This document shows, in pieces, positions 3,298 to 62,277 of a DNA stretch of 64,000 nt. Numbering within the stretch: the first letter of the stretch is position 1; each line of letters starts with the position of its first letter. Position numbers and translations under genes: made by a program. The DNA comes from Planctomycetota bacterium (GTDB lineage Bacteria > Planctomycetota > UBA1135 > UBA2386): assembly GCA_035649575.1 (NCBI GenBank), contig DASRJH010000031.1:2746-66745 (forward strand), in the 5' to 3' direction. The notes beneath the pieces were generated by a model. That model searched no databases and was not told where the DNA came from. It worked only from the letters and a program-made list of their open reading frames with translations.

Positions 3298-4674
3298 ATG
3301 AGCACACGAACCATCCCGGTCGCACGCGACGATCGCCTCGAGGTCGACATCGAGGGCCTCGGCGACGGACCCGACGGCATCGCCCGCATCGGCAACTACG
3401 TGATCCTCGTGCCCGGCGTGCTCCCGGGCGAACGCGCCTACGTGCGCATCACGTCGGCAGCGCGCAAGTTCGGCCGCGGCGAGCTGCTGGCCGTGCGCAA
3501 GGCCGCTCCCGAGCGCGTCGCGGCGCGCTGCCCCCACTTCCTGGCCTGCGGCGGCTGCCATCGCCAGCACCAGGACTACGGAGCACAGCTGCAGGACAAG
3601 CAGCAGCGTCTGCAGCGCGCGATCACGTGGGCCCTCGGCGACGAAGCTCCCAAGGTCGCGCCGCCGATCCCCGCGGAGCCACCGTTCGGCCAGCGCCACA
3701 AGGTCGTCGTGCACCTGCGCAACACGCGCGACGAACGCCTCGAGGCGTGCTTCCATCGCCTGCGCAGCCCCGAGCTCGTCGCCGTGCGCGAATGCCCGGC
3801 GAGCCAACCGCGGGCGTGGGCGATCGCGATGGCTGCGGTGGCCCTGCTGCACGAGCTGCCGCACGGCGCATGGGATCCCGACTTCGCGCCGAACGACCTG
3901 CTGCGCAGCGTGCTCGTGCGCACGACGATGACGGGGCAGGCCCACGTCGTGCTCGTCGCGCGCCAGCCCATGATCCCTGGCCTCGAGCGCGTGCTCGACG
4001 ACCTGCACGAAGCCGGCGCGACGACGATCAGCTGCAACGGCAACGACGGCGAGTTCTCGCGCCTGCTCGGTCCACAGACCACGATCGTCTCGGGACCACC
4101 GCGCATCGAAGAACGGCTGCTCGAAACGCACTACCTGCTCTCCCCCGATACGTTCTTCCAGACCTCACCCGAGGGCGCCGAGCACCTCGTGCGCCTCGTC
4201 ACCGAGTGGCTGGCGCCGACGAGCCAGGACGACGTCGCGGATCTCTACTGCGGCGGCGGCCTGCTCACGCTGCCGCTAGCGCGCACGGCGAGGAGCGCGC
4301 TCGGCATCGAGCTCAGGACCGCGACGATCTCCGACGCCGAGGCGTCCGCGCGCAGAAACGGCCTGCGCAACGTGCAGTGGCGCTCGGGTCACGTCGAGAG
4401 CTGGCTGCGCGCGTGCCGCCACGGGCAGCTGCCCCGCCCCCACCTCGTCGCGATCGATCCGCCGCGCACGGGGCTCGAGCCCGTGGTCATCGACGAGCTG
4501 TGCCTGCTGCGGCCGCGCCGCATCGCCTATGTCTCGTGCGAACCACGCGCGCTGCAGCGCGACCTGCAGGCACTCGCGACTGCAGGTTTCCGCACGCGGT
4601 CCGTGCAGCCGATCGACATGTTCCCACAGACCGCCCACATCGAGGCAGTCGCGATGCTCGAACGCAGCACGTGA
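3298..4674 (+). CDS. rlmD: 23S rRNA (uracil-5-)-methyltransferase, RumA/RlmD family (TRAM domain, Fe-S cysteine cluster, SAM-dependent methyltransferase)
   Basis: MSTRTIPVARDDRLEVDIEGLGDGPDGIARIGNYVILVPGVLPGERAYVRI is TRAM-like. CPHFLACGGCHRQH is the Cys cluster. DLYCGGGLLTLPLA is the SAM motif. C-terminus YVSCEPRALQRDL..DMFPQTAHIEAVAMLERST. ATG 3298 chosen over the track start 3256. Confidence 0.85.
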   Translation: MSTRTIPVARDDRLEVDIEGLGDGPDGIARIGNYVILVPGVLPGERAYVRITSAARKFGRGELLAVRKAAPERVAARCPHFLACGGCHRQHQDYGAQLQDKQQRLQRAITWALGDEAPKVAPPIPAEPPFGQRHKVVVHLRNTRDERLEACFHRLRSPELVAVRECPASQPRAWAIAMAAVALLHELPHGAWDPDFAPNDLLRSVLVRTTMTGQAHVVLVARQPMIPGLERVLDDLHEAGATTISCNGNDGEFSRLLGPQTTIVSGPPRIEERLLETHYLLSPDTFFQTSPEGAEHLVRLVTEWLAPTSQDDVADLYCGGGLLTLPLARTARSALGIELRTATISDAEASARRNGLRNVQWRSGHVESWLRACRHGQLPRPHLVAIDPPRTGLEPVVIDELCLLRPRRIAYVSCEPRALQRDLQALATAGFRTRSVQPIDMFPQTAHIEAVAMLERST

Positions 4675-4684
4675 GAAACAGCGC
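4657..4684. repeat. attL-type core (direct repeat copy 1), covering the last rlmD codons and its TGA stop
   Basis: Exact 28-bp match to 10842-10869, read directly from the sequence. Confidence 0.85.
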
Positions 4685-4794
4685 GTAGGGCCGCTTTGCC
4701 CTCAGTTCTCAGCATTCTAGTGTTACGTGCAGGAGCGTGCAAGAGCGTGCACGAAGAGGCGCGAGAAGTGGACAGTTTCGGCCGATTTGGACAG

Positions 4795-5745
4795 TCACTG
4801 TCCACTCGGCGAGGACGGGCCACGAGCACCCAGTCGGTGCTCGATCACCGGTCGGAGATCCTTCGCCAGCTGCTCGGGCGTCTCCCACACGATGTGCAGC
4901 AGCTGGCGGGTATCGAACGGCAGCTTGCCGAGCTCGCCCTTGCGCACGGTCCAGATCACAGGTTTCCCGAGGCCTTCAGCGAAGCCGGCTTCGTACATGA
5001 CGCTGGCGCTAACGCCTGTAGCATCCGCAACCATGGCACGCGACCGACGAATCGCGACGAGGATGTGGGCGTCGATGCGATCGCCGTGCGCCGGTTCTCG
5101 ATCGACGCGCAGCGGTGAGTAGCCGGCACTGCGGATGCCCTTGCTCAGACCGTTGTCGTAGACGTCGCTCATAGAAGAATCGAACCACATGGCGACGAAG
5201 ACACGGTCGTTGCGCAGCGGCGACTTGTCGATCTCCTCCAGATGGAGGTAGCCGGCAAAGGTGAGTCGCACTCGGAGTAGGCCGTCTTGGGGGTCAATCC
5301 CGAGGCTCTCGAGGCGCCCCTGCTGGACGGCCGCGGCGACGAGGAACAGCATGTCCTCGCGTCCTCCCGTCCACACCAAAGCGGCATCGGTCTTCAGGTT
5401 CAGAGGAACCGCGTCGTTGAGAGTGTTGCTGCGCGACTCGACCAGACGGAGAAGCATGTCGAGCTGCTCGCGCACGCCATGCTCAGGCAGCCAGGATCTG
5501 AGACTGTCGAGCGATTCAGCGAGAGACGGGTATCCTGACTCGCGATTGTTCCGCTGCATTCGGAGCCACGCGGACAGGCGTGGCCATGCATCGAACCTGG
5601 GATCCCGTCCAAGCTCCTCCACCATGTCGCGGTGCAGCAAGAACAAGCCGCAGCGGGAACACTCGAAGCACTCGAGCGACAGGTCCGACGAGGATATGGT
5701 GTCCGCGGACTCCCAACAAACTGGGCACTTGCTGGGATGCTTCAT
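4795..5745 (-). CDS. Zinc-ribbon protein with a C-terminal nucleoside 2-deoxyribosyltransferase-like (NDT/TIR-like Rossmannoid) domain; candidate effector or toxin
   Basis: ATG 5745 overlaps the TGA of the upstream ORF (ATGA). MKHPSKCPVCWES...ECFECSRCG gives two CxxC pairs. C-terminus RVFVAMWFDSSMSDVYDNGLSKGIRSAGYSPLRVD...ILVAIRRSRAMVADATGVSASVMYEAGFAEGLGKPVIWTVRKGE...LPFDTRQ matches the FVAMxF...ADxT...YExGxAxGxGKPVI pattern of NDT-like domains. Confidence 0.75.
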   Translation of the reverse strand: MKHPSKCPVCWESADTISSSDLSLECFECSRCGLFLLHRDMVEELGRDPRFDAWPRLSAWLRMQRNNRESGYPSLAESLDSLRSWLPEHGVREQLDMLLRLVESRSNTLNDAVPLNLKTDAALVWTGGREDMLFLVAAAVQQGRLESLGIDPQDGLLRVRLTFAGYLHLEEIDKSPLRNDRVFVAMWFDSSMSDVYDNGLSKGIRSAGYSPLRVDREPAHGDRIDAHILVAIRRSRAMVADATGVSASVMYEAGFAEGLGKPVIWTVRKGELGKLPFDTRQLLHIVWETPEQLAKDLRPVIEHRLGARGPSSPSGQ

Positions 5746-5891
5746 TTGTCGCCAGCACTGCCCTCGCCCGGCATGGCCATCCGCCCAGGGGAATCGACGG
5801 CGCCTACACCCAGGCGCGCCCGCCGCACCCACGTCTTCGCGGTGCCGCGCGGGATGTTGAGCGCTGCAGCCTCGAGTGCGCGGGCGCTCAT
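5742..5891 (-). CDS. Small (49 aa) helix-turn-helix protein, excisionase/MerR-like (HTH_17-type pattern)
   Basis: ATG 5891 overlaps the antitoxin TGA (ATGA at 5888-5891), and its own TGA overlaps the next ATG (5742-5745). MSARALEAAALNIPRGTAKTWVRRARLG resembles the LGVSRSTVYRWVRxGRL-type HTH. Short ORF, so moderate confidence. Confidence 0.55.
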   Translation of the reverse strand: MSARALEAAALNIPRGTAKTWVRRARLGVGAVDSPGRMAMPGEGSAGDK

Positions 5892-6091
5892 GGCCTTGCC
5901 TTGCCTGCCTTCGTGGTCCTCGGCTTCGGCATGGTGAACGGCTTGCCCTCGAGTCGCTCGAAGTCGGCCAGCGGCACGAGGGCGAACTTCGGACGGCCGC
6001 GGTGCGTGCAGACCACGCGGGCGCCTGCGACGACAGCCTGCGCGACTTGCGTCAGATTCCACCGCAGTTCGTCGGCCGGGATGGTCTTCAC
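5888..6091 (-). CDS. Phd/YefM-family type II antitoxin-like protein (67 aa)
   Basis: VKTIPADELRWNLTQVAQAVVAGARVVCTHRGRPKFALVPLADFERLE follows the Phd/YefM consensus (xTVsaxEaRxNLxxxxxxVxxGexVxITRxGkPvAvLVsxxeyErL). GTG 6091 has AAGG 9 nt upstream. The longer track ORF (to 6526) has an Arg/Pro-rich, junk-like N-terminus. Confidence 0.7.
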   Translation of the reverse strand: MKTIPADELRWNLTQVAQAVVAGARVVCTHRGRPKFALVPLADFERLEGKPFTMPKPRTTKAGKARP

Positions 6092-6367
6092 TCGCCGCAA
6101 CCTTAAGGTTCCGCGGAACGCCGTCAATCCCCTGGTCGCGATTCCGTCTCGTCGCGCGCCCCCGCTTGGCGAATCCTCGTCGCCGGGGCTACTCTGCCGG
6201 CAGCACACCGCGGCCCGCTCGGCTTCACCCGGCGCCTGGGAACTGAGGTTGCCGGGCGGCCGCGCACCTCCCGGACGTAGGCATGCGTCGTGGTCATGTC
6301 CCTCCCTTGACGTCACGGCGAGGCCTGCTAGCTTCCGCGGCTCACAGCCACAAACGAGGAGGCACGA

Positions 6368-8335
6368 ATGATCTCGTCTCTGAGCGGTCTTGGTGCGGTG
6401 GTCTTGCTGGCTTCGCTGACCTCGGCGCAAACACCGCCAAACTACTATGTGAGCAACGGAGGCAGCGACACCAACCAGGGATCGATTCAGGCACCTTGGG
6501 CGACTCTCGGCAGGGTCCGGCAGCACGCGGATGACCCTACGAAGGGTTTCGCCGCTGGTGATTCAATCAATCTGGAACGCGGCAGCTCGTGGACCGACGA
6601 ACTGCTCATTTTGCCGAACCCAAGCCCAACTGCTAATTCGAATAGCGGCACTTCGGGCAGCAAGATCCGCCTGCAGGCCTATGGCGTTGGGCCGGCTCCG
6701 GTCATCAAGGGACTAGTTCAGCGCGTCGGCACCCGCGTCCAGCTGCGCAACGTCGAGCACTGGATCATTAGCGGTCTTCGCTTCGAAACTTCGCACCATG
6801 GGGTCCTCCTGTCCAACTCTACGACGCCCCACACGGTCCTTCACGGTGTCGAAGTGCACAACTGCTACTTCAAGGATATGGATGATCGCGGCAATTCGTT
6901 TACCAATTGTGGTATTCTGATCCACGGCTCGGCCCAGCAGGTTGACTGGCAAGACATCAGCATCAGCAACTGCATCTTCGACACTGTGTCAAACGGTGTG
7001 AGTAATGTTGGGTCCACCAACAACATCAGCATTGTCGACTGCGCGGCTTTTGGTGGCCTGTCCGCTGGCTTTTCACTTACCCATGTAGCGGGAGGTACTG
7101 TGGCTGGGTTCAGTGTTCGTGATGTTGGCGGAACCAGTTCGTTTGGGTCTTGTGGCGCCGCCTTGATCTTATGCGACGATGTAATAGTCACCGACTGCTC
7201 GATCTCCGGCGTCCGACACGATGGTGGCCTTGACGGCGTCGGATTTGATTTTGAGGCGGGCTGCAGGAACTGCACCTTGCGTCGCAGTTACATTTTCAAT
7301 AATGAGGGTGCTGGCATCATGGTCATGAGCGGGAACACCTTGCCGCTACAACACAATAGCTCACTCGTCATCGAGGATTGTCTACTGTACAATAACAACA
7401 CCCGTTATCAGCTTCCAGGGGCACCCGGCTTTCCCGCTGTAAATTCGGAACTTTTGTGCTTTCATGCGCTGAACAATGGCGTCATGAGAAACGTTGGTGT
7501 CTACAGGAGAACTACTACTACAGCTACCTACAACCACTTCAGCACCAATTGGGGCGGCTTCACAATAGAACCTAGTGTCATCACGGGTGATTACTGCGTC
7601 GGATGGAAACCTGTCTATGGAAAGTTCTCGCAGCTGGACGTTGGGGGCAATGGAAACATCGTCGGTGTGGAAGCTGGTAAGGTGCTTGTGTGGACCCGTG
7701 AATTCCTGGGCAATTGCTGGACCAACGTCACAGGTAACTTTGGCCCGTTCCTCAGCGCTAGTATCGGTTGCGACGGTGTGTTGTGGGCCGTTAAGAACGA
7801 CTTCTCCGTATGGGGGTACGATGGAGGCTTCAATTGGAGTACGCGAGGAACTGTGGCAATGAAACAGATTTCCGTCGGGCAACTCCCCCCGTTCACCCCT
7901 CCTCCCACTGTGATGGAAGACAATGTTTGGGGGATTGATACGCAGAGTACACCCCAAACCTGGAGATGGAACCAGTCGTTGTTGCCCACTCCTGCTTGGG
8001 AGTGGGTCTCTGGGAACACCACTCAAGTCGATGCTGCCGCAACTAGAGGCGAAGGTGCCTGGGCTGTTTTTGCATCCCAACAGCCGCCATTGGTCTATCG
8101 TATCCAGAATCCTCCCACCCAAACATGGCAGCAGGTAACTACACAGCCGCTCGACCAAGTGTCCAGCACGAACTTCAATGCTGCCGTCGGGGTATATGGA
8201 AATGCCGTCTGGCTGACAAGGGATGGGGGAGTGTCATGGTCTCAGCTTCCGGGCCAGCTAACTCAAGTCGCCGAGGGAAGTGATGGTGCGCTGTGGGGGT
8301 TGGACGCGAACGGGCACGTTTGGAGATTCAATTGA
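6368..8335 (+). CDS. Secreted right-handed beta-helix (pectate-lyase-fold-like) protein with a C-terminal tectonin/TECPR-like beta-propeller repeat region
   Basis: GGAGG lies 7 nt before the ATG. Signal peptide MISSLSGLGAVVLLASLTSAQ. N-terminal YYVSNGGSDTNQGSIQAPWATL plus periodic N/C/I-rich rungs (VHNCYF, ISISNCIF, ISIVDCAA, VIVTDCSI, CTLRRSYIFNNEGAGI). C-terminal W-rich repeats (VLWAVKNDFSVWGYD, NVWGIDTQ, NAVWLTRDGGVSW, GALWGLDANGHVWRFN). A/T is frequent at third codon positions, unlike neighbouring genes. Confidence 0.8.
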   Translation: MISSLSGLGAVVLLASLTSAQTPPNYYVSNGGSDTNQGSIQAPWATLGRVRQHADDPTKGFAAGDSINLERGSSWTDELLILPNPSPTANSNSGTSGSKIRLQAYGVGPAPVIKGLVQRVGTRVQLRNVEHWIISGLRFETSHHGVLLSNSTTPHTVLHGVEVHNCYFKDMDDRGNSFTNCGILIHGSAQQVDWQDISISNCIFDTVSNGVSNVGSTNNISIVDCAAFGGLSAGFSLTHVAGGTVAGFSVRDVGGTSSFGSCGAALILCDDVIVTDCSISGVRHDGGLDGVGFDFEAGCRNCTLRRSYIFNNEGAGIMVMSGNTLPLQHNSSLVIEDCLLYNNNTRYQLPGAPGFPAVNSELLCFHALNNGVMRNVGVYRRTTTTATYNHFSTNWGGFTIEPSVITGDYCVGWKPVYGKFSQLDVGGNGNIVGVEAGKVLVWTREFLGNCWTNVTGNFGPFLSASIGCDGVLWAVKNDFSVWGYDGGFNWSTRGTVAMKQISVGQLPPFTPPPTVMEDNVWGIDTQSTPQTWRWNQSLLPTPAWEWVSGNTTQVDAAATRGEGAWAVFASQQPPLVYRIQNPPTQTWQQVTTQPLDQVSSTNFNAAVGVYGNAVWLTRDGGVSWSQLPGQLTQVAEGSDGALWGLDANGHVWRFN

Positions 8336-41500: not shown

Positions 41501-43006
41501 ATGCGATATTCCTACGCTCTCTTCGCCGCAGCAGCGGTTGCGGCCTCTGTTCCCAGCCAGAACTGTCCTGTGCTCCCAACCTGGACGCCCTTCCCAACCC
41601 CGGTGCCTCCCGCGACGCAACCGTCCGTGCGGCGCTCGGGAGCCATGTGCTTCGACGGCAATGGCAACCGCCTCATCCTGTATGGCGGTGTCAGCCCGAC
41701 GCCGAGCATCATCCTCAGCGAGACCTGGGCGTTCAACGGCGCGGCGTGGACGCTGCTGTCACCGATCGGCGGAGCTCCGGGTCGCTGGGGCCACCAGATG
41801 GTGCGCAACACGGTGTTGAACCAACTCGTGACGTTCGGTGGTCGTTCCCCCACGATCAGCGGCTTCGCCCAGGACAGCTATCTGTGGAACGGCACGGCCT
41901 GGTCCAGCCTCCCGACATCGAACCCTCCGGCGGCGCGCTACCTGTACGGGATGACCTACGACTCCGGGCGCAACAAGATCGTGATGTTCGGCGGCCGTGC
42001 CGCGCTCGCGACCAAGGGCGACACCTGGGAGCTGACGATCAACGGCGTGACCGGGAGCTGGCAGGAAATCGTGACCCCGACGTCACCACCGCCGCGCGAA
42101 GAGATGGTGATGGCATACATGCCGGAGCTGCGCCGCACTGTGTTGTTCGGCGGCTACGACCGCGACACGGACACCATCTACGGCGACACCTGGGGGTACG
42201 ACGGCGTCACGTGGCAACTCCTGTCACCCATCATGCCCCCTCCCCCGGTGGAACTGACGCCGCGCTACCGCGCGGCCAGCGCATACGACACCGCACGCCG
42301 GCGCCTCACGGTCTACGGCGGGTTCGACGGCGCCTTGGTGAAGACCGATACCTTCGAATTCACGGGCGACGAGTGGCGACTGATCAACGTGGGACCGGGC
42401 AGCCTCAACGCGACCGAGATGTATGCGGCCTACGACAGCCAGCGCCGCAGGTTCGTCACGTTCGGAGGCTACGGCGTTGCGTTCAGCAACCAGACCCACG
42501 ATTACAACGGCAGCTGCACCGCGTTCTTCAGCCAGTTCGGCGAAGGGTGCGAGACGTCGATCGGCGTTGGCGCGATCTCCGTCTTTGATCCCGACGGTCC
42601 AACAGGCCCCGTGCCGCCGAGCCTGCCGCGGCTCGGCCAGCAGTATCAGATACAGTTCTCCAACATTCCGCCGCAGACTCCGCCGGCGACGACCTTCGTC
42701 ATCGTCGTCGTCGGACTGTCGAACACGACTCTCAGCGGCATCCCGCTGCCACTCGATCTGAGCGTCATCGGCTGGGCATGCTCGCCTCCCGCACCACCAT
42801 GCCCACCATGCTTCCTGCTGACTTCCGCCGATCTCCTGGATGTGCTCGAGACGCCGACCGGTCTCCTGACGAAGAACATTGCGATCCCGAACACCTCGAC
42901 CCTGACCAACCTGCCGCTCTACTCACAGGCGCTCATTCTCGATCCGGGTGCGCCCAACGGGGTGGGTGGCACCAGCCGCGGCGGCGTCGGCGTCATTGGA
43001 AACTGA
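41501..43006 (+). CDS. Secreted Kelch-repeat beta-propeller protein with a conserved C-terminal module
   Basis: ATG 41501 (MRYSYALFAAAAVAASVPSQ signal). Repeats RSGAMCFDGNGNRLILYGG, WGHQMVRNTVLNQLVTFGG, ARYLYGMTYDSGRNKIVMFGG, REEMVMAYMPELRRTVLFGG, YRAASAYDTARRRLTVYGG. The C-terminal module begins GEGC at 42539. Confidence 0.75.
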   Translation: MRYSYALFAAAAVAASVPSQNCPVLPTWTPFPTPVPPATQPSVRRSGAMCFDGNGNRLILYGGVSPTPSIILSETWAFNGAAWTLLSPIGGAPGRWGHQMVRNTVLNQLVTFGGRSPTISGFAQDSYLWNGTAWSSLPTSNPPAARYLYGMTYDSGRNKIVMFGGRAALATKGDTWELTINGVTGSWQEIVTPTSPPPREEMVMAYMPELRRTVLFGGYDRDTDTIYGDTWGYDGVTWQLLSPIMPPPPVELTPRYRAASAYDTARRRLTVYGGFDGALVKTDTFEFTGDEWRLINVGPGSLNATEMYAAYDSQRRRFVTFGGYGVAFSNQTHDYNGSCTAFFSQFGEGCETSIGVGAISVFDPDGPTGPVPPSLPRLGQQYQIQFSNIPPQTPPATTFVIVVVGLSNTTLSGIPLPLDLSVIGWACSPPAPPCPPCFLLTSADLLDVLETPTGLLTKNIAIPNTSTLTNLPLYSQALILDPGAPNGVGGTSRGGVGVIGN

Positions 43007-48275: not shown

Positions 48276-48475
48276 GGCCAGGGAAAACTATTTCCGCAAC
48301 CAGCCCGTGACAACGTATAGGTGCTGTTGGTGGCACTGCGACCCCTCGGTCCTCCGGGCAGGTCGGTCCCGCCGCGGACGACTGCTCGGTGCGGTTTCGA
48401 TTGCACCCGAGGTCCCGGAGTGGCCGATCTGAACCCAGGGACCAGGCCTGGCAGGCCGATCTCTCCCGGAACCGT

Positions 48476-50836
48476 ATGCAACAATCGAAATCGCCGCACC
48501 TGTTCGTCCGTGCCCGCCTCCTTCCCTGGTTGTTCGCCGCCGCGATGTCCGCGGGACTGTGCGCCCAGACCGATGACCAGATCCTCGCCATCCTGCAGCA
48601 GGCAGAAGCGGCACCGGTCGCGCAGATCTACGAGTTCGGCAGCCAGGTGGCCGAGCTCTCTCCCGACGCCAACACGGATGCCTTCCGGGACACCGTGATC
48701 CGCGTCGCGAGGAAGAGCGGCACCGACAAGGCCCGACTGTGCGCCGCCGTGGCGATCAAGTCCATCAGGCAAGACGACGTCTACGGCAAGGACGTGCTCG
48801 AGCTGCTGAAGCCGGTCGCCACCGCCAAGACGACTGCCGAGGACGTGCGCGCGGGCGTCATGACGGTGTTCGGTGAGCAGCGCCTCTTCAACACCCGCAT
48901 CACTCCCGACGTGCGCACCATCGTCGAAGCGAACTGCAAGGACGAGCTCACAGCCCCACTCGTGCGCATCGAAGCGGCCTTGGCGCTCTGGAACATCGGC
49001 AGCAACGAGCAGATGGCAACGGCCAAGCAGGTGCTCGAGCAGTTCCTGCAGTCGAGCGACCACGAGCTCAAGGTGCGCGGCGCTCTCGCGCTAGCCGAGT
49101 TCAACATCGAGGGCGGCCCGGCCTGGAACGTCCTGCGCGAGATCCGCGACCAGCCGACCGACGCGGGCCGCAGGGCGCGTCTCTTCCTGCAGCGCGGCGA
49201 GGAGCGCCGCAAGTTCGCCGACTTGCTCAACCGCGTGATCGAACGCAACGAGAGCGGCGATGCAGATCCGGCCGATGCCAACTCCTATGCAGTCCTGAGC
49301 GAGCTGCGCCGCCGCATCAAGACACAGTACTTCAACGGCAGCGAAGTCACGGACGAGGAACTCATCCAGTTCGCGGCGAAGGGCATGCTCGAGGGCCTCG
49401 ACCCGCACAGCACGTATTTCACGGGTGACGAGTACAAGCGCTTCTTCTTCGATCTCCACCGCGAGTACGGCGGCATCGGCGCATTCGTCAACTTCGACCA
49501 GGACAACGACTTCTCGATCGTGCGCCCGATCTACTCGGGGCCTGCCTACAAAGCCAGCATGCGCAGCGGCGACAAGATCCTCGAGGTCGACGGCTGGGAG
49601 ACCGCGCAACACACCACCGACGAGATCATCAGCCGCCTCAAGGGCCGCCCCGGGACCCCGGTCGTGCTCAAGTTCTTCCGGCCGGGCTTCCAGGAGCCCC
49701 AGGACATCACGATCGTGCGACAGCAGATCTCGGTGCCGGCCGTCAACTGGGCCATGGTGCCGGGCGACATCGGCTACGTCGAGCTGATCAACTTCAGCGC
49801 CAACCTGACGACGGAACTGCGCACCGCGTTGTCCGATCTGCAGCGCAAGGGTGCGCTGGGCATCGTGCTCGACGTGCGCAACAACACGGGCGGCCTGCTG
49901 ATGCAGGCCAGCGACGTGGTCGAGCAATTCCTCGAGGGCAAGAAGCTCGTCGTCTTCACGCAGGGCCCCTCCGAGCCGCGGCGCGACTACTTCACGTCGT
50001 CGACGCCGCGCGAGGTCTGCACCTTGCCGCTTTGTGTGCTGACGAACAACCTGTCGGCATCGGCCAGCGAGATCACGGCCGGCGCCCTGCAGGAGCACCA
50101 GCGCGCGGTCATCGTCGGCCAGCGAACGTTCGGCAAGGGCACCGTGCAGAACCTCTTCCCGCTCTCGACGGAGCCCGAGGAGAAGTTCGAGGACCTCAAC
50201 AACGACCGCGTCTGGCAGGAGGGCGAGCCGTACACTGACCGCAACAAGAACGGCAAGTACGACTTCGGCGCGCACATGAAGCTCACCGTCGCGAAGTACT
50301 ACTTCCCGGTGAGCCTGCGCAGCCCTCACCGCGAGTTCAACAAGGAAGGGCGCATCGCCGATCCCAACTGGGGAGTGACACCCGACCGCATCGTCGACCT
50401 GCTCGAGCACAAGCCCGAAGACGCTTGGAAGAACGCCGCTGTCTACGCGCTGCTCAAGAAGAGTGTGTTCCGCGAATACGTGAAGAATCACATGTCCGCG
50501 AACGAGGCGCTGTTCCGCCAGCTCGCAGATGGCGACGACGGGAACCCGTCGAAGTACCCGGATTTCGCGAGCTTCTACCAGGGCCTGAACACGAAGCTGA
50601 GCGAGGACGACGTGCGGCGCTGGGTGCGCTACGAAGTGCGCGACCAGGTCAGCGACCTGCGCGGTGCCGTGTATCCGGGTCTGCGCGCGCTCGGCGATCC
50701 GCAGGAGGACGCCCAACTGCAGGAGGCCGTGCGCACGCTGCTCAAGCAGACGGGCAAGGACATCCGCGACATCGCCGCCTACAAGAACGTGCTCAAGATC
50801 AAGTTCGACGACGCGCAACGCACGTCGGCGAAGTAG
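48476..50836 (+). CDS. S41-family carboxy-terminal processing peptidase with a PDZ domain and an N-terminal helical-repeat region
   Basis: ATG 48476 (MQQSKSPHLFVRARLLPWLFAAAMSAGLCAQ signal). PDZ GGIGAFVNF..IYSGPAYKASMRSGDKILEVDG. Catalytic region LDVRNNTGGLL and LTNNLSASASEITAGALQEHQRAVIVGQRTFGKGTVQ. Confidence 0.85.
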   Translation: MQQSKSPHLFVRARLLPWLFAAAMSAGLCAQTDDQILAILQQAEAAPVAQIYEFGSQVAELSPDANTDAFRDTVIRVARKSGTDKARLCAAVAIKSIRQDDVYGKDVLELLKPVATAKTTAEDVRAGVMTVFGEQRLFNTRITPDVRTIVEANCKDELTAPLVRIEAALALWNIGSNEQMATAKQVLEQFLQSSDHELKVRGALALAEFNIEGGPAWNVLREIRDQPTDAGRRARLFLQRGEERRKFADLLNRVIERNESGDADPADANSYAVLSELRRRIKTQYFNGSEVTDEELIQFAAKGMLEGLDPHSTYFTGDEYKRFFFDLHREYGGIGAFVNFDQDNDFSIVRPIYSGPAYKASMRSGDKILEVDGWETAQHTTDEIISRLKGRPGTPVVLKFFRPGFQEPQDITIVRQQISVPAVNWAMVPGDIGYVELINFSANLTTELRTALSDLQRKGALGIVLDVRNNTGGLLMQASDVVEQFLEGKKLVVFTQGPSEPRRDYFTSSTPREVCTLPLCVLTNNLSASASEITAGALQEHQRAVIVGQRTFGKGTVQNLFPLSTEPEEKFEDLNNDRVWQEGEPYTDRNKNGKYDFGAHMKLTVAKYYFPVSLRSPHREFNKEGRIADPNWGVTPDRIVDLLEHKPEDAWKNAAVYALLKKSVFREYVKNHMSANEALFRQLADGDDGNPSKYPDFASFYQGLNTKLSEDDVRRWVRYEVRDQVSDLRGAVYPGLRALGDPQEDAQLQEAVRTLLKQTGKDIRDIAAYKNVLKIKFDDAQRTSAK

Positions 50837-50901: not shown

Positions 50902-52263
50902 CTAGAGCCCGAGCGTGAGGCGGGCGCCGCGGCTCATCGCGAGGCCTTGCAACGGCGGCAGCGGAGCACCTTGCGAGTCGTCGATGAGCCACTGGCAGAA
51001 CAACTGCCCACCCGCGAGCGACGGCACGTTAGGAATCGGCAGGGACTCGATGCGCACGCCGAGCGGCGAGGTCACGCTGAGCCACACGGGCAGACCGGTC
51101 GACGGGTCGACGAGCAACGTGCAGGCGCCGACGATCGGCAGCTGCGCAGCCGCGCCCGAGAACCACAGCGCCGCGATCGACTGCGGCGCCGCGGACTCGA
51201 CGCCGATCCGGAAGTTCAGGTTGCCGAGCGTGGGCAGGCCATTGCTGCGCATGACCGGAACCCCCGAAGTCCCGCTGCAGCCGGCCCCATAGATCGTGAA
51301 CGACGCGGTGGTCCCGCCGCCAAGATACCACGGCACCGTGAGGTTGTTCGTGGTGAAGAACTGCTGCAGCAGGTTCGCGACCTTGGCGCGACCCGAGGGG
51401 CTCGGGTGCGTGCCATCGGGTTGCACGTCGGCGCAGAGCCAGACGAGGCCATCGCTGCGCGGCGTGGTGCCATCGGTCCACAGGTAGGGACCCCAACCGA
51501 GCCAGGGTGCCAGCACGGTCCCTTGCTGCGGATCGCAGTTGAGCTGCGGATCGCCGTTGATCTGCTGCTCGATGAGCCACTTCACTGCGAAGCCGGACTC
51601 GTAGGCGTAGGGCTCGGGGTTGAGGCTCGTGGTCGCATAGCCTGCGTAGGTGCGGCTGCTGCAGAAACAGAGCTGCACGTTCGGGTAGCGCGCACGGATG
51701 TTGCGCGCGATCTGGGCCAGCAGGCCCTGCAGCTGCGTCGAAGCACCAGGGAACCCGCCCGTGACGCCGGCGATCGCTTCCTTGAGCCACACGACCTGCA
51801 CCTGCTGCGGCGTCACGCCCGCGTTGGCGAGGCGTTGGTCGACCACGGTCCAGAAGTTCGCATTGGGGTTCGCGACGATGACCGCATCCTGACCCCCCTG
51901 CGCGCCGTCGACGATCGTCACCGCGGGGTTCTTGTTGGGGTCGCCATTCGCGGTCACGATCCAGGTCGAGTACTCCTGCGTCGTGTTCGACATGCCGATC
52001 GACAGCAGCACGATGCGGCCACCGACAGCAGGAAGGCCAGCGGCATCGCGCGGCACGACGAGCGAACGCGCGGTGACGCCCAGCGCCTGATGCGCGGGCG
52101 GCGGCGTGTTCGCGCCATTGCCATAGAGACCCCCAGTGAGACCCTGATACGTACCGATGCCGAGGTCCATCAGCGGCACGGCCCCGATCGACGTGTTGTT
52201 GCAGTTCTGCGCGGGAACGCTCACGGCGGTGACGAGCACGGCCGACAACCAGGTAGTGTTCAT
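50902..52263 (-). CDS. Secreted SGNH/GDSL-like esterase-fold protein (tentative) with the same conserved C-terminal module
   Basis: ATG 52263 (MNTTWLSAVLVTAVSVPAQ signal). IVLLSIGMSNT is block-I-like and DVQPDGTHPS is DxxH block-V-like. The C-terminal module starts GAGC at 51288. Confidence 0.6.
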   Translation of the reverse strand: MNTTWLSAVLVTAVSVPAQNCNNTSIGAVPLMDLGIGTYQGLTGGLYGNGANTPPPAHQALGVTARSLVVPRDAAGLPAVGGRIVLLSIGMSNTTQEYSTWIVTANGDPNKNPAVTIVDGAQGGQDAVIVANPNANFWTVVDQRLANAGVTPQQVQVVWLKEAIAGVTGGFPGASTQLQGLLAQIARNIRARYPNVQLCFCSSRTYAGYATTSLNPEPYAYESGFAVKWLIEQQINGDPQLNCDPQQGTVLAPWLGWGPYLWTDGTTPRSDGLVWLCADVQPDGTHPSPSGRAKVANLLQQFFTTNNLTVPWYLGGGTTASFTIYGAGCSGTSGVPVMRSNGLPTLGNLNFRIGVESAAPQSIAALWFSGAAAQLPIVGACTLLVDPSTGLPVWLSVTSPLGVRIESLPIPNVPSLAGGQLFCQWLIDDSQGAPLPPLQGLAMSRGARLTLGL

Positions 52264-52328: not shown

Positions 52329-52960
52329 TCAGACGTAGGACGGATACGTGGCGTCGTACATCTGGGCTCGCACCGCGCTCTCGATGTCGTCTGGCCGCGG
52401 CACCGTGGCCAGGCCCTCTTCGTAGGCGACCGTCGCCACGGCCGCGGCGATGCGCGTCGACACGTGGCGCAGCTCCGACAGCGGTGGGAACAGCAGTCCC
52501 TGCTCGAGCGACGACTCTTCGACGAGCCCCGCGAGCGTGCGGGCCGCCGCATGGAACATCGCATCGGTGATGGACCGCGCACCGGCGACGATCGCGCCGA
52601 GGCCGAGGCCCGGGAAGACGTAGGCGTTGTTGCACTGGCCCGGCACGAACCTGCGACCATCCAACTCGACCGGCGCGAACGGGCTGCCGCTCGTGAACAC
52701 CGCGGTGCCGTTCGACCATCGACAGGCCTGCTCCGCCGGTGCTCGTTCCGGTCCTGCAGGCTCACGAGATAGATGCACTGCTCGATCGCGCTCGTCTTCT
52801 GGCGGAAGCTCTCGAGCACGCGCGCCATTTGTTCCTGCTGCGTCAGCACGCGCGGCGGCAGCAGCCCGTGCAGCCCGAGCGCGTCGCGTTCGGCTGCGGT
52901 GAATGCGGTCCCTTTGTTGAGCCGAGGGTCGTGCAGGTAGTCGATCGGACGCAACGGCAT
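52329..52960 (-). pseudogene. NAD(P)-dependent malic enzyme remnant: N-terminal ~73 codons joined out of frame to the C-terminal ~135 codons
   Basis: N-terminal fragment MPLRPIDYLHDPRLNKGTAFTAAERDALGLHGLLPPRVLTQQEQMARVLESFRQ..LVSLQDRNE (52960-52742). A different frame then reads AEQACRWSNGTAVFTSGSPFAPVELDGRRFVPGQCNNAYVFPGLGLGAIV... to 52329. The whole central catalytic and NAD-binding region is missing. Confidence 0.75.
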
Positions 52961-53168
52961 TGGAGGCACGCTACCCCACCTGCCGTGGTTCCAGGAACAG
53001 ATGCGAGGCGTGGGCCATCCCCGCAGTACACGGTGTGGGACAGGCCCGGCCGACTTGTTACACGACGCCGGGGACCAAGGCCCCCTCGCGTGGAGGCGAA
53101 CACCAGGCCACAGCCGATACGTTTGTCCCCCGTCCATCGCGACCGGCCAACCGCATCCCGACCACGTC

Positions 53169-54749
53169 ATGCGCACCCAAACCCTGCTCGCCGCATCTTT
53201 CGCCCTTGCGGTCGGGGTCGCCCAATCACCCGCGCCCCAATCCCCGGCACCCCAGTCCCCGTCTCAATCACCGGCAACCCAGCCGACGTTCAACGAGCAC
53301 ATCGCCCCCCTCGTATGGAAGTCCTGCGCGGGCTGTCACCGGCCCGGTGAGGTCGCGCCGTTCTCGCTGCTGACCTACGCCGACGTCAAGAAGCGCGGCC
53401 GCAACGTGCTGACCGTCGTCGAGGACCGCTACATGCCCCCGTGGCACCCGGCCCCCGGCTACGGTTCGTTCCGCGACGATCCGCGTCTGTCCGACGAGCA
53501 GATCGGCACGCTGCGGGCCTGGGTCAAGGCCGGCATGCCCGAAGGTCCCCCCGAAAAGCTCGGCAAGCCACCCGCGTTCACCACGGGCTGGCAGCTCGGC
53601 GAACCCGATCTCGTCGTCAAGACGCTCGGCGCCTTCGAAGTGCCCGCGAGTGGGCGCGACATCTACCGCAACTTCGCGATCCCGCTCGGCCTGCCCGAGG
53701 ACAAGTACGTGACCGCCATCGAAGTTCGCCCCTCGGCGCGTTCGGTGCTGCATCACGTGCTGATCTTCCTCGACGAACAACGCGAGGCCCAGGAGCTCGA
53801 CGGCAAGGATGGCCGCGCCGGCTTCTCGGGCATGCGGTTGCAGCGATCCACCATGATCGGCGGCTGGGCCGTCGGTGGCATGCCGAGCCATCTGCCCGAG
53901 GGCCTCGCGATCAAGATCCCGAAGGGCAGCGACCTCGTGCTGCAGAGCCACCTGCATCCGTCGGGCAAGAAGGAGCAAGAGGCCACCGTGCTCGGCCTGC
54001 ACTTCGCGGACGAGCCGCCGAAGCGCACGCTCGTCAGCATCCAGCTGCCACCGTTCTTCGGCTTCACGCAGGGACTCGACATTCCTCCCGGCGAAGCCGA
54101 CTACCGGCTGCGCGACACCTTCACGCTGCCCTGCGACGTCGACGCCGTGAGCATCGGCGGCCACGCGCACATGGTGTGCAAGTCGCTGCAGATGATGGCA
54201 GAGCTGCCCGACGGCAAGACGACGCCGCTGCTCAAGATCGACCGCTGGGACTTCGACTGGCAGAACCGCTACACGTTCTCTTCGCTCGTTCGGTTGCCCA
54301 AGGACGCGCTGCTGCGCTCCGAGCTCGTCTACGACAACAGCAAGAACAACGAGAACAACCCCAACAAGCCGCCGAAGCGAGTGCGCTGGGGCCGCGAGAC
54401 GACCGACGAGATGGGCAGCATCACGCTGCTCGTCGTGCCCGCCGACGAGAAGGATCTCGAGGTCCTGCGCAGGGCCATCGCCAAGAAGAACACGGAGAAG
54501 ATTCCGGGTCTCAAGCAGGAGCAGATCGATGCCCAGTTCCAGAAATTCGACAAGAACCGCGACGGCAAGTTGACGAAGGACGAAGTGCCGCGGCTGGGTT
54601 TGTTCTTCGATCGGCTCGACAAGGACGGCGACGGGGCATTGTCGAAGGAGGAAGCCAGCGCGATCGGCGAGTTGCTGGGCGGGATCGGCGGCCTTGGTGG
54701 CCAACCCGGCGGCGGTACTGGCGGCGGCAACGGGAACGGCGGCAAGTGA
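53169..54749 (+). CDS. Secreted protein combining a CxxCH haem-c-type motif, a copper type II ascorbate-dependent-monooxygenase-like domain and two C-terminal EF-hands
   Basis: ATG 53169 (MRTQTLLAASFALAVGVAQS). IAPLVWKSCAGCHRPGEVAPFSLLTY. His-rich sites LHHVLIF, SHLHPSG and GGHAHMVCKSLQMM. EF-hand loops DKNRDGKLTKDE and DKDGDGALSKEE. Confidence 0.7.
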   Translation: MRTQTLLAASFALAVGVAQSPAPQSPAPQSPSQSPATQPTFNEHIAPLVWKSCAGCHRPGEVAPFSLLTYADVKKRGRNVLTVVEDRYMPPWHPAPGYGSFRDDPRLSDEQIGTLRAWVKAGMPEGPPEKLGKPPAFTTGWQLGEPDLVVKTLGAFEVPASGRDIYRNFAIPLGLPEDKYVTAIEVRPSARSVLHHVLIFLDEQREAQELDGKDGRAGFSGMRLQRSTMIGGWAVGGMPSHLPEGLAIKIPKGSDLVLQSHLHPSGKKEQEATVLGLHFADEPPKRTLVSIQLPPFFGFTQGLDIPPGEADYRLRDTFTLPCDVDAVSIGGHAHMVCKSLQMMAELPDGKTTPLLKIDRWDFDWQNRYTFSSLVRLPKDALLRSELVYDNSKNNENNPNKPPKRVRWGRETTDEMGSITLLVVPADEKDLEVLRRAIAKKNTEKIPGLKQEQIDAQFQKFDKNRDGKLTKDEVPRLGLFFDRLDKDGDGALSKEEASAIGELLGGIGGLGGQPGGGTGGGNGNGGK

Positions 54750-60603: not shown

Positions 60604-62277
60604 ATGAGCACCAAGATCGGGTTGAACTGCGTCGCTCGAGGCGGGCTGCTCGGGATGAGCCTTCTGACATGTTTGGTTTCCCAGCAGGAGCAGTGGCGGG
60701 TTTGGTCCTCCACGGACGCATACGGACTTCCGGAGCCTATTCGGGACGTCAACGGCGATGGAACGACAGACTGCATCGCGATCGTGGCGAAGAACCTGTT
60801 CTCCACGAGCACCACCAACATTGTCGTTCGCATTCACTCTGGATTGGACGGATCGATGCTCATGGAGCAGCCCGTTTGGCAATCCAGCGAACGAGTGTTT
60901 GCCATCGGCGATGTGGACGGCGACAACATCTCCGAGTTCGCCATCCAAGTGCACTGGGGCGCCGCCGCGCCGAACTGGCTCAGCGTCTACTCACCGCTGC
61001 ACGGCCAGCCCCTGTGGACCTGCACGGGATCCTTGACGACCGGCTATGGGTACTTCGGCAAGTACACGATCGGGCTGAACCTCGACAACGACACCAACCG
61101 GGAAATCGTCACGTCGACGAGTGAATACAACGACTCGCGCATCTTCGCCTACGACCACGACGGAACGCTGCTCTACACCTTCAACCTGCAGCCCCCAGCC
61201 AGCGAATGGATGCGCGGCCTCGGCAGCGTCGGCGACATCGACGGCGACGGTGCCGACGACTTCGGCGTCGGCCTGGTCGAGACCACAGGTCGCGGAGCGA
61301 TCCAACTGTACTCCGGTCGCTCCGGCAGGGCACTGCGCCGCGATCTCGGGCCGCTGCCCGGCGACGCGATCGGCAGCCAGGTCGTGGGCGTCGGTGACTT
61401 CGACCGCGACGGTGTCCCCGACTACGCCGCCAGTAGCTACCTTGGTTTCCGCGGCGTGGCAGTGATCTACTCCGGTGCCACGGGCCAGATGCTGCGCCAA
61501 TGGTCGGGCGAGCAAGGGCTCGCCGAGAAGCTCGTTGGAGGGCCCGACTTCGATCTCGATGGCGTGCCCGATGTGTTCGCGGGCGGCCCTCGCCACTTCA
61601 ACCCGACGGGCTGGACCGGCCGTATCCAGGTGCTGTCCGGCCGCGACGGTGGCCTGTTGTGGGACGAGTGGAATGCGCCATCGACGGAACTCGGTGCGCT
61701 TTACCAGCCAGATCGCGAACTCGGCACCGGCCTGGCCAACCTCGGGCCGTTGCCGGGCAACCCGTACCCGGTCGTCGTGGTGTGGGACCGCCCTTACAAG
61801 ATCATCGGCTATCAGGGCACGATCCCGATCGTTCTCCATTCGCCGCGGTTGCGCGCAATCTGCGTTGGCCTCGCGGGCACCGACGTGCAGGGCATCGGGT
61901 GCAGCAGCACGGGAGCGCCACCGCAGAACGCAGTGCGCAGCGACTCTGGCGGGCTGCGCATCACGCTGGCTGGCGCTCGTGCGAACGCACTGGCCTGGCT
62001 GCTCGTCGGCCCCCAGGGCTCCACGAGCTGGCAGGGCATCCCGCTGCCCTACGGCCTCGGTAGCTGGTCGCTACCTGGATGCTACCTGCTCGTGCCCGCC
62101 GACCTCATCTTCGCGCGCGTCACCGGCAGTGGTGGCTGGAACGAGGGCTACACACTCGTGACCGCACCCTTCACCGTCGCCACAACCGGCCTCGGCGTGG
62201 CGACGCAGTGGTTCGTGTTCAACCCGGCGACGTCCGACTATGGCATGACACCCCGACACGAACTGCGCATTCAGTGA
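60604..62277 (+). CDS. Secreted FG-GAP/VCBS-repeat (integrin-alpha-like propeller) protein with the conserved C-terminal module
   Basis: Repeats DVNGDGTTDCIAI, GDVDGDNISEFAI, GDIDGDGADDFGVG, GDFDRDGVPDYAAS and PDFDLDGVPDVFAG. The C-terminal module starts GIGC at 61891. Confidence 0.75.
   Translation: MSTKIGLNCVARGGLLGMSLLTCLVSQQEQWRVWSSTDAYGLPEPIRDVNGDGTTDCIAIVAKNLFSTSTTNIVVRIHSGLDGSMLMEQPVWQSSERVFAIGDVDGDNISEFAIQVHWGAAAPNWLSVYSPLHGQPLWTCTGSLTTGYGYFGKYTIGLNLDNDTNREIVTSTSEYNDSRIFAYDHDGTLLYTFNLQPPASEWMRGLGSVGDIDGDGADDFGVGLVETTGRGAIQLYSGRSGRALRRDLGPLPGDAIGSQVVGVGDFDRDGVPDYAASSYLGFRGVAVIYSGATGQMLRQWSGEQGLAEKLVGGPDFDLDGVPDVFAGGPRHFNPTGWTGRIQVLSGRDGGLLWDEWNAPSTELGALYQPDRELGTGLANLGPLPGNPYPVVVVWDRPYKIIGYQGTIPIVLHSPRLRAICVGLAGTDVQGIGCSSTGAPPQNAVRSDSGGLRITLAGARANALAWLLVGPQGSTSWQGIPLPYGLGSWSLPGCYLLVPADLIFARVTGSGGWNEGYTLVTAPFTVATTGLGVATQWFVFNPATSDYGMTPRHELRIQ

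Follow-up and report, generated by a model that had tools for sequence, protein, structure and literature searches.

A predicted all-beta C-terminal domain on many unrelated exported proteins of Planctomycetota, a candidate envelope-localisation tag

Introduction

The 64,000-nucleotide stretch analysed here (the window; positions 2,746 to 66,745 of the forward strand of contig DASRJH010000031.1, GenBank assembly GCA_035649575.1) encodes three proteins of a Planctomycetota bacterium that differ in their N-terminal parts and end in what looks like the same module. What is this module, and why would proteins with little else in common carry it? An earlier note took it for a sorting, anchoring or secretion tag outside every described family. 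The question reaches beyond the locus, since a domain without a name in any database closes about 4–5% of the called genes of the source genome and tens of thousands of public protein clusters. Should the domain serve as an address tag, Planctomycetota have a whole system for protein sorting or surface display that has gone unstudied, and the domain would delimit the surface proteome of many uncultured lineages from soil, freshwater and wastewater. The list of its cargo, mostly propellers, lectin folds and proteins without a known family, would give the first inventory of the proteins that these bacteria keep in or on the envelope. Even if it is only a binding module, its profile would annotate thousands of hypothetical proteins. 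The envelope biology of Planctomycetota is still debated. A survey of wastewater metagenome-assembled genomes notes an abundance of signal-peptide proteins in Planctomycetota whose location is unknown (PMC11495043).

Results

Three proteins of the window end in one homologous domain

The first of the three genes (41501..43006, plus strand) encodes a Kelch-propeller protein of 501 residues. Its signal peptide, MRYSYALFAAAAVAASVPS (41501..41557, plus strand), is predicted to be cleaved before Q20 of a QNC motif, a site that we infer from the genome-wide A-x-A↓Q pattern described below, and its C-terminal domain comprises residues 339–501 (42515..43003, plus strand). The second gene (50902..52263) encodes an esterase-like protein of 453 residues, which begins MNTTWLSAV, has a signal peptide ending VPA↓QNC and carries the domain at residues 318–453 (50905..51312, minus strand). 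The third (60604..62277, plus strand) encodes an FG-GAP propeller protein of 557 residues with the domain at residues 422–557 (61867..62274, plus strand). All three open reading frames exist as the earlier note listed them, although the note did not say that the second lies on the minus strand. Pfam recognises the Kelch and FG-GAP families in the N-terminal parts and nothing in the three tails, and NCBIfam has no match anywhere in the three proteins. The label "SGNH-like", given earlier to the esterase-like passenger, finds no support in Pfam or PDB sequences, neither of which matches it; on inspection, only its GMSNT and DGTHP motifs resemble SGNH blocks I and V. The three tagged genes are scattered among unrelated housekeeping genes, without operon logic. 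Their surroundings include genes for acetyl-CoA synthetase, MoaD-MoaE, fructose-1,6-bisphosphatase, MoaC and an S41/PDZ protease, as well as an EF-hand protein, an aldo-keto reductase, an FAA hydrolase and an enolase-superfamily enzyme.

Pairwise BLASTP among the three tails is weak (E 9e-6, 1e-3 and 0.6), too weak for proof, and the case for homology therefore rests on profiles. A leave-out HMM was built from 32 paralogous tails on other contigs of the genome, with none from the window. It retrieves the esterase-like tail with 65.3 bits (E 1e-18), the Kelch tail with 60.6 bits (E 3e-17) and the FG-GAP tail, the most divergent of the three, with 39.9 bits (E 8e-11). Each match spans positions 2–133 of the 134 in the profile, and these three tails are the only matches on the window's contig. 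The shared, homologous module proposed from the window is thus borne out by a model that had seen none of its three copies.

The family consensus reads a.f..fGxGC.G..G.P.L....P.lG.t....l..lP....a.l..G.S.....lPLP..L...G.PGC.L.v..D in its first half, followed after ..D by .........G.a.....iP..P.L.G.....Q....D....NP.G...SNa....iG-stop. The motifs picked out earlier agree with it (fGxGC, lPLP..L..G.PGC.L.V, Q....D and SNa....iG-stop), as do the distances from GxGC to the stop (155 residues for the Kelch tail, 128 for each of the others). Two Pro-rich insertions in the alignment account for the longer Kelch copy. The GxGC motif itself is real, but the domain does not start there. In the Kelch copy, GEGC begins at position 42539 and the domain about 8 residues earlier, at 42515, because the first strand precedes the motif. 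This copy has the conserved Cys350 and Cys437 and the invariant Gln476, with extra cysteines at 339, 427 and 434.

The domain recurs on 71 unrelated groups of passengers

In the source assembly (6.0 Mb, 349 contigs, estimated 82.6% complete), at least 160 open reading frames carry the domain at iE<1e-5, never with more than one copy per protein. The end of the domain lies at most one residue from the stop in 140 of these 160. An iterated profile raises the number of carriers to about 190, and 15–20 more proteins have a terminal tail of greater divergence, with the PGC, Q and SNG elements retained and GxGC lacking. A census had been expected to show whether the module is always C-terminal. Almost all copies are, and the exceptions are rare: six proteins have an extension of 30–35 residues after the domain, and in one protein the domain precedes an esterase-like region.

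The passengers sort into 71 unrelated groups. Among them are a 30-member family without a Pfam match, DUF5122 propellers (25), Kelch proteins (13) and RCC1-like proteins (9). Others contain LamG, BNR/sortilin, beta-propeller phytase, PPC, LVIVD, FG-GAP, CHRD or lamin-tail (LTD) domains, and lactonase-type propellers and di-haem cytochrome c peroxidases are also among them; 13 of 20 further passenger representatives have no Pfam family. The 30 residues upstream of the domain are not enriched in Pro, Gly or Ser, so that no flexible linker precedes it, and no recognisable cleavage region is evident there. Compared with its passenger, the domain is slightly more conserved (median identity 43% versus 40%; higher in 263 of 367 paralogue pairs). 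For 62 of 102 domains the nearest relative sits on a homologous passenger, and for the other 40 on a non-homologous one, with seven pairs of the latter kind at least 45% identical. The domain has therefore been both shuffled between passengers and duplicated together with whole genes.

Predicted fold and conserved residues

AlphaFold2 (AF2) models built with the paralogue alignment, one of the Kelch copy (pLDDT 93.6, pTM 0.87) and one of a canonical copy (pLDDT 97.0, pTM 0.88), are both all-beta, the latter with eight main strands. The domain is accordingly predicted with high confidence to be an all-beta, Ig-like sandwich of about 130 residues. Two cysteines are kept or lost together across 111 full-length copies: 95 have both, 11 have neither, four have only the first and none has only the second. 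Such joint behaviour is the signature of a disulfide pair, and one disulfide probably holds the sandwich. The conserved glutamine is present in 110 of the 111 copies. A Cys-Gln thioester is unlikely, because the glutamine is retained in all 11 copies that lack both cysteines.

The absence of the module from described families stands after searches by sequence and by fold. Neither Pfam and NCBIfam (E<=1) nor PDB sequence profiles identify a family for any of 35 copies; the sole NCBIfam CTERM match is a weak one to VPXXXP-CTERM (E 0.11, one of the 35). Foldseek searches of the PDB with the two confident models return nothing at E<1e-3, the best E values being 2e-3 to 5e-3. The nearest shapes, all insignificant, are generic Ig-like sandwiches, namely the ML domains of NPC2 and the GM2 activator, CBM39 and complement MG domains, with query-normalised TM scores of at most 0.46. 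A literature search found no paper describing the domain.

Signal peptides of the carriers

A loose heuristic finds a signal-peptide-like start in 126 of the 160 carriers. Under a stricter rule 83 carriers were scored, and the hydrophobic cores of these lead into A-x-A↓Q. Glutamine is the first polar residue past the core in 71% of the 83, versus 40% of other signal-peptide-like starts and 13% expected from composition. The VP[SA]QNC motif noted earlier does occur in two of the window proteins. Given the A-x-A↓Q pattern, VPS↓QNC and VPA↓QNC are better read as predicted cleavage sites followed by a +1 glutamine than as a motif that begins the mature chain.

Distribution of the domain

The domain is present in 30 of 31 relatives of the same order, and in most of these the matches reach the scoring cap. 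The 2.9-Mb relative G021 has no copy, and two further relatives of the order have only 6–8. Two families, f9 and f10, are reduced to 1–11 copies. Evenly sampled across the phylum, Planctomycetota genomes carry the domain in 53 of 251 cases (46 of 201 genera). A profile search of 1.84 billion cluster representatives gives 23,918 matches at E<=1e-3 and 11,758 at E<=1e-10; of the best 150 of the 23,918, all but two end within a few residues of the C-terminus. All loci recovered from named genome records come from metagenome-assembled genomes. Among 52 such loci, 43 are labelled Planctomycetota or Planctomycetia, and the other nine Brocadiaceae, Kuenenia, Minisyncoccia or plain "bacterium". Best-hit scores of the window's S41 protease, a conserved protein unrelated to the domain, separate all 22 carrier genomes from non-carriers, save G021. 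This pattern suggests that the carriers form one clade with secondary loss, and that simple presence/absence profiling is confounded by phylogeny.

The low-copy sister families retain two kinds of carrier. One is a di-haem cytochrome c peroxidase of about 560 residues with a divergent tail. The other is a propeller-peroxidase protein of about 1000 residues, whose cysteine-free copy of the domain is internal, so the fold can exist as an ordinary internal domain.

Search for partner machinery

A tag of the kind proposed might be expected near, or together with, a sortase-like, exosortase-like or secretion gene, yet no such gene is linked to the domain by neighbourhood or co-occurrence. Across the genome, no family other than cargo is over-represented at a distance of up to two genes from the cargo genes; one apparent enrichment is an artefact of overlapping reading frames. 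PorV (NF033710) has no match in the source genome, with a weak signal in a control genome. SprA (TIGR04189) and Por_Secre_tail also have none there, but no control genome gave a signal for these two, and the same holds for Slam/DUF560 (PF04575), with matches in 0 of 20 carrier genomes and no signal in any control.

Several candidates were set aside. A single concatenated query of four outer-membrane barrel candidates (an HExxH-propeller-barrel protein, a short Omp85-like protein and two unknown barrels) was searched in 14 carrier and 14 non-carrier genomes, and none of the four tracks the domain. All 43 genomes tested, the domain-free G021 among them, encode the S41/PDZ protease that adjoins the esterase-like gene. 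The core cargo retained in low-copy genomes consists of proteins of the cytochrome c peroxidase type, with no obvious processing enzyme among them.

Discussion

Our data favour an envelope-localisation tag, be it a signal for export or attachment or a domain that anchors itself, and we give this reading a probability of roughly 55%. Sec-exported carriers, an oxidisable fold, a single terminal copy on many unrelated carriers, shuffling between them, purifying selection and restriction to a lineage all point this way. The core of the earlier proposal, a shared and almost always terminal domain on unrelated signal-peptide proteins, is supported, and such a distribution is what a sorting, anchoring or secretion tag would be expected to show. 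In such a scheme, the carriers would leave the cytoplasm through Sec and lose their signal peptide to signal peptidase I, in most cases at A-x-A↓Q, and the tail would fold in the periplasm, where its cysteine pair can oxidise. At the cell envelope, the tail might then direct some 160 proteins that otherwise have nothing in common to one shared fate: it would be recognised by a machinery for outer-membrane export or attachment, or it would itself dock onto an envelope component and keep its carriers on the surface.

[quoted passage not shown] T9SS CTDs (TIGR04183 type A or PF18962 Por_Secre_tail; TIGR04131 type B) are likewise beta-sandwiches, placed at the very end of numerous Sec-exported proteins that are unrelated to one another, a position that the planctomycete domain takes in 140 of 160 carriers and on 71 passenger groups. 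In both cases, the cargo genes are scattered rather than clustered with a machinery, and the signal peptides expose a +1 glutamine. In other respects the two differ: PorV was not found, none of 35 tail copies matches TIGR04183, TIGR04131 or PF18962 even at E<=1, and no T9SS CTD is among the best 50 Foldseek matches of the two tail models. In addition, T9SS CTDs have roughly 70–100 residues and no conserved disulfide, whereas the planctomycete domain has about 130 residues, a conserved cysteine pair and no evident linker or cleavage region.

Other tagging systems are more distant. In the type XI secretion system (T11SS; Slam, DUF560/PF04575), which is mainly proteobacterial, a folded C-terminal beta domain on Sec-exported cargo is the signal for outer-membrane translocation. 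That domain is an 8-stranded barrel, whereas ours is predicted to be a sandwich. The tags of PEP-CTERM/exosortase, GlyGly-CTERM/rhombosortase, MYXO-CTERM/myxosortase and LPXTG/sortase are also C-terminal, lineage-specific and found dozens of times per genome. Such short tags are motifs of about 25–35 residues that include a transmembrane helix followed by a basic tail (PMC11980579); by its alignment and AF2 models, the planctomycete domain has 130 residues in a soluble all-beta fold and lacks a hydrophobic helix.

In a narrower form of the localisation reading, the tail would mark cargo for an as yet undescribed pathway of outer-membrane export or surface attachment in one large Planctomycetota clade, with about 160 substrates per genome and parts unrelated to T9SS or T11SS. 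Such a pathway may couple to a signal-peptide rule for +1 glutamine (pyroglutamate) whose origin is separate from that of the Bacteroidetes rule. We put this forward tentatively, as a possibility that falls well short of even odds. Several observations speak against a pure export signal. The domain follows its passenger without a flexible linker, unlike many cleaved tags, and without a cleavage region, and rare copies are internal or followed by an extension. In addition, di-haem cytochrome c peroxidases are among the cargo. In studied Gram-negative bacteria this enzyme is periplasmic, so that such cargo fits periplasmic retention as well as surface display.

The domain could instead be a ligand-binding or adhesion module, lectin- or CBM-like, that directs its carriers to an external substrate such as a polysaccharide or a particle and not to their own envelope. 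We regard this as unlikely, if by no means far-fetched. The weak fold neighbours include CBM39, a beta-glucan-binding domain found at the N-terminus of insect beta-GRP (TM up to 0.46–0.60), and the NPC2/GM2-activator lipid binders; like our domain, these are of similar size and disulfide-containing or Ig-like. Many passengers are themselves binding-type propellers and lectin folds, and rare internal copies exist. CBMs typically occur at either end of a protein, internally and in tandem, whereas this domain occurs once per protein, at the extreme C-terminus in 140 of 160 carriers and in all but two of the best 150 database matches. The resemblance in shape is insignificant and comes without sequence similarity: CBM39 is matched at E 7.5e-3 to 2e-2 with a query-normalised TM of at most 0.46, no Foldseek match reaches E<1e-3, and no Pfam CBM family matches any of the 35 copies. 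Furthermore, non-enzymatic passengers carry the domain too, although these do not need to be targeted to a substrate.

The shuffling data bear on another alternative, a structural or periplasmic module without any addressing role. The tail would then be a cap for folding, stability or oligomerisation that spread by duplications, or a periplasmic retention domain. The direct junction with the passenger would suit such a cap, the 62 of 102 domains whose closest relative is on a homologous passenger point to whole-gene duplication, and the association with di-haem cytochrome c peroxidases, including an internal copy, would agree with a periplasmic role. Yet there are 71 unrelated passenger groups with clear shuffling between them, and a cap for one fold would be needless for propellers, lectin folds, phytase, CHRD and LTD alike. 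Stability alone hardly explains the strict terminal position in about 4–5% of the called genes, and we consider such a module without an addressing role improbable. A highly divergent T9SS CTD exported by a cryptic T9SS would follow the same general logic of a C-terminal beta-sandwich on varied Sec-exported proteins and would bring the Bacteroidetes-like +1 glutamine (PMC5837995), but it is largely refuted by the profile, PorV and fold searches above (with the lack of SprA and Por_Secre_tail matches to be read beside their silent controls), by the length and likely disulfide of the domain, and by the description of T9SS as confined to the FCB superphylum (PMC11205867, PMC12398890).

The preference for glutamine after the signal peptide is a habit of the whole source genome and extends beyond the carriers. 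A profile for Glu_cyclase_2-type glutaminyl cyclase, the one type searched for, finds no such enzyme in the source genome. In a crude cross-genome comparison, the fraction of [AGS]Q at the end of signal peptides is 0.31 in the source genome, 0.37 in G122 and 0.39 in G061, all of which have the domain; it is 0.12 in G207, which also has it, and 0.06–0.14 in four domain-free Planctomycetota. A "+1 Gln rule", by which signal peptidase I sites mostly precede glutamine, is reported as Bacteroidetes-specific (PMC5837995). The predicted signal-peptidase sites of the source genome favour +1 glutamine in the same way, here in a planctomycete lineage.

Number and variants of the tail

The main profile, which finds the domain in 160 ORFs of the window's own genome (G000), does not detect every tagged protein. 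A second, more divergent tail type in this genome keeps the PGC, Q and SNG...F/D elements and lacks the N-terminal GxGC. It occurs on contigs C9, C85, C256, C60, C303, C70, C176, C181 and C233 and goes undetected by the profile. Therefore, the true number of tagged proteins exceeds 160. Outside the window, six cargo proteins of G000 (contigs C181, C8, C50, C26 and C127) continue for 30-35 residues beyond the domain. These extensions terminate in an aromatic or hydrophobic residue, as in ...YSYGLVTKFY, and may form an extra strand pair.

The domain is also found internally. A conserved protein of ~1000 residues combines a propeller and a region resembling di-haem cytochrome c peroxidase with an internal, cysteine-free domain copy (loci L071, L074, L077, L078 and L079 in genomes G245, G027, G259, G185 and G120). 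It occurs once in each genome of a sister family in which terminal domain copies are few.

Signal peptides

Signal peptides in G000 mostly end in A-x-A|Q genome-wide, as in the window sequence at 41501-41566 and 52201-52263 on the reverse strand. These ends resemble the Bacteroidetes '+1 glutamine rule', which is described as Bacteroidetes-specific in PMC5837995. Besides G000, two of the three other carrier genomes sampled appear to follow such a rule, and none of the four domain-free Planctomycetota sampled does. A search of G000 for the Glu_cyclase_2 cyclase found none.

Neighbouring genes and candidate partner proteins

The esterase-like cargo gene lies convergent with the forward-strand gene of a long (~815-840 residues) S41/PDZ protease of the C-terminal-processing type (48311-50833). 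All 43 Planctomycetota genomes tested have this protease, and its occurrence is therefore not tied to that of the domain. Divergent from the cargo gene is a forward-strand gene (52941-54746) for a 602-residue protein with C-terminal EF-hand motifs.

Elsewhere in G000, contig C21 (reverse complement, 4181-7354) encodes a 979-residue protein without a Pfam match, which carries an HExxH motif and has a middle part like a propeller and a barrel-like C-terminal end, and contig C148 (3090-4622) encodes a 455-residue Omp85-like protein. The HExxH protein has no match in three genomes of the same family. Homologues of both proteins, 46-51% identical, are present in the distant domain-free genomes G051 and G040, side by side in G051, which makes for a patchy distribution.
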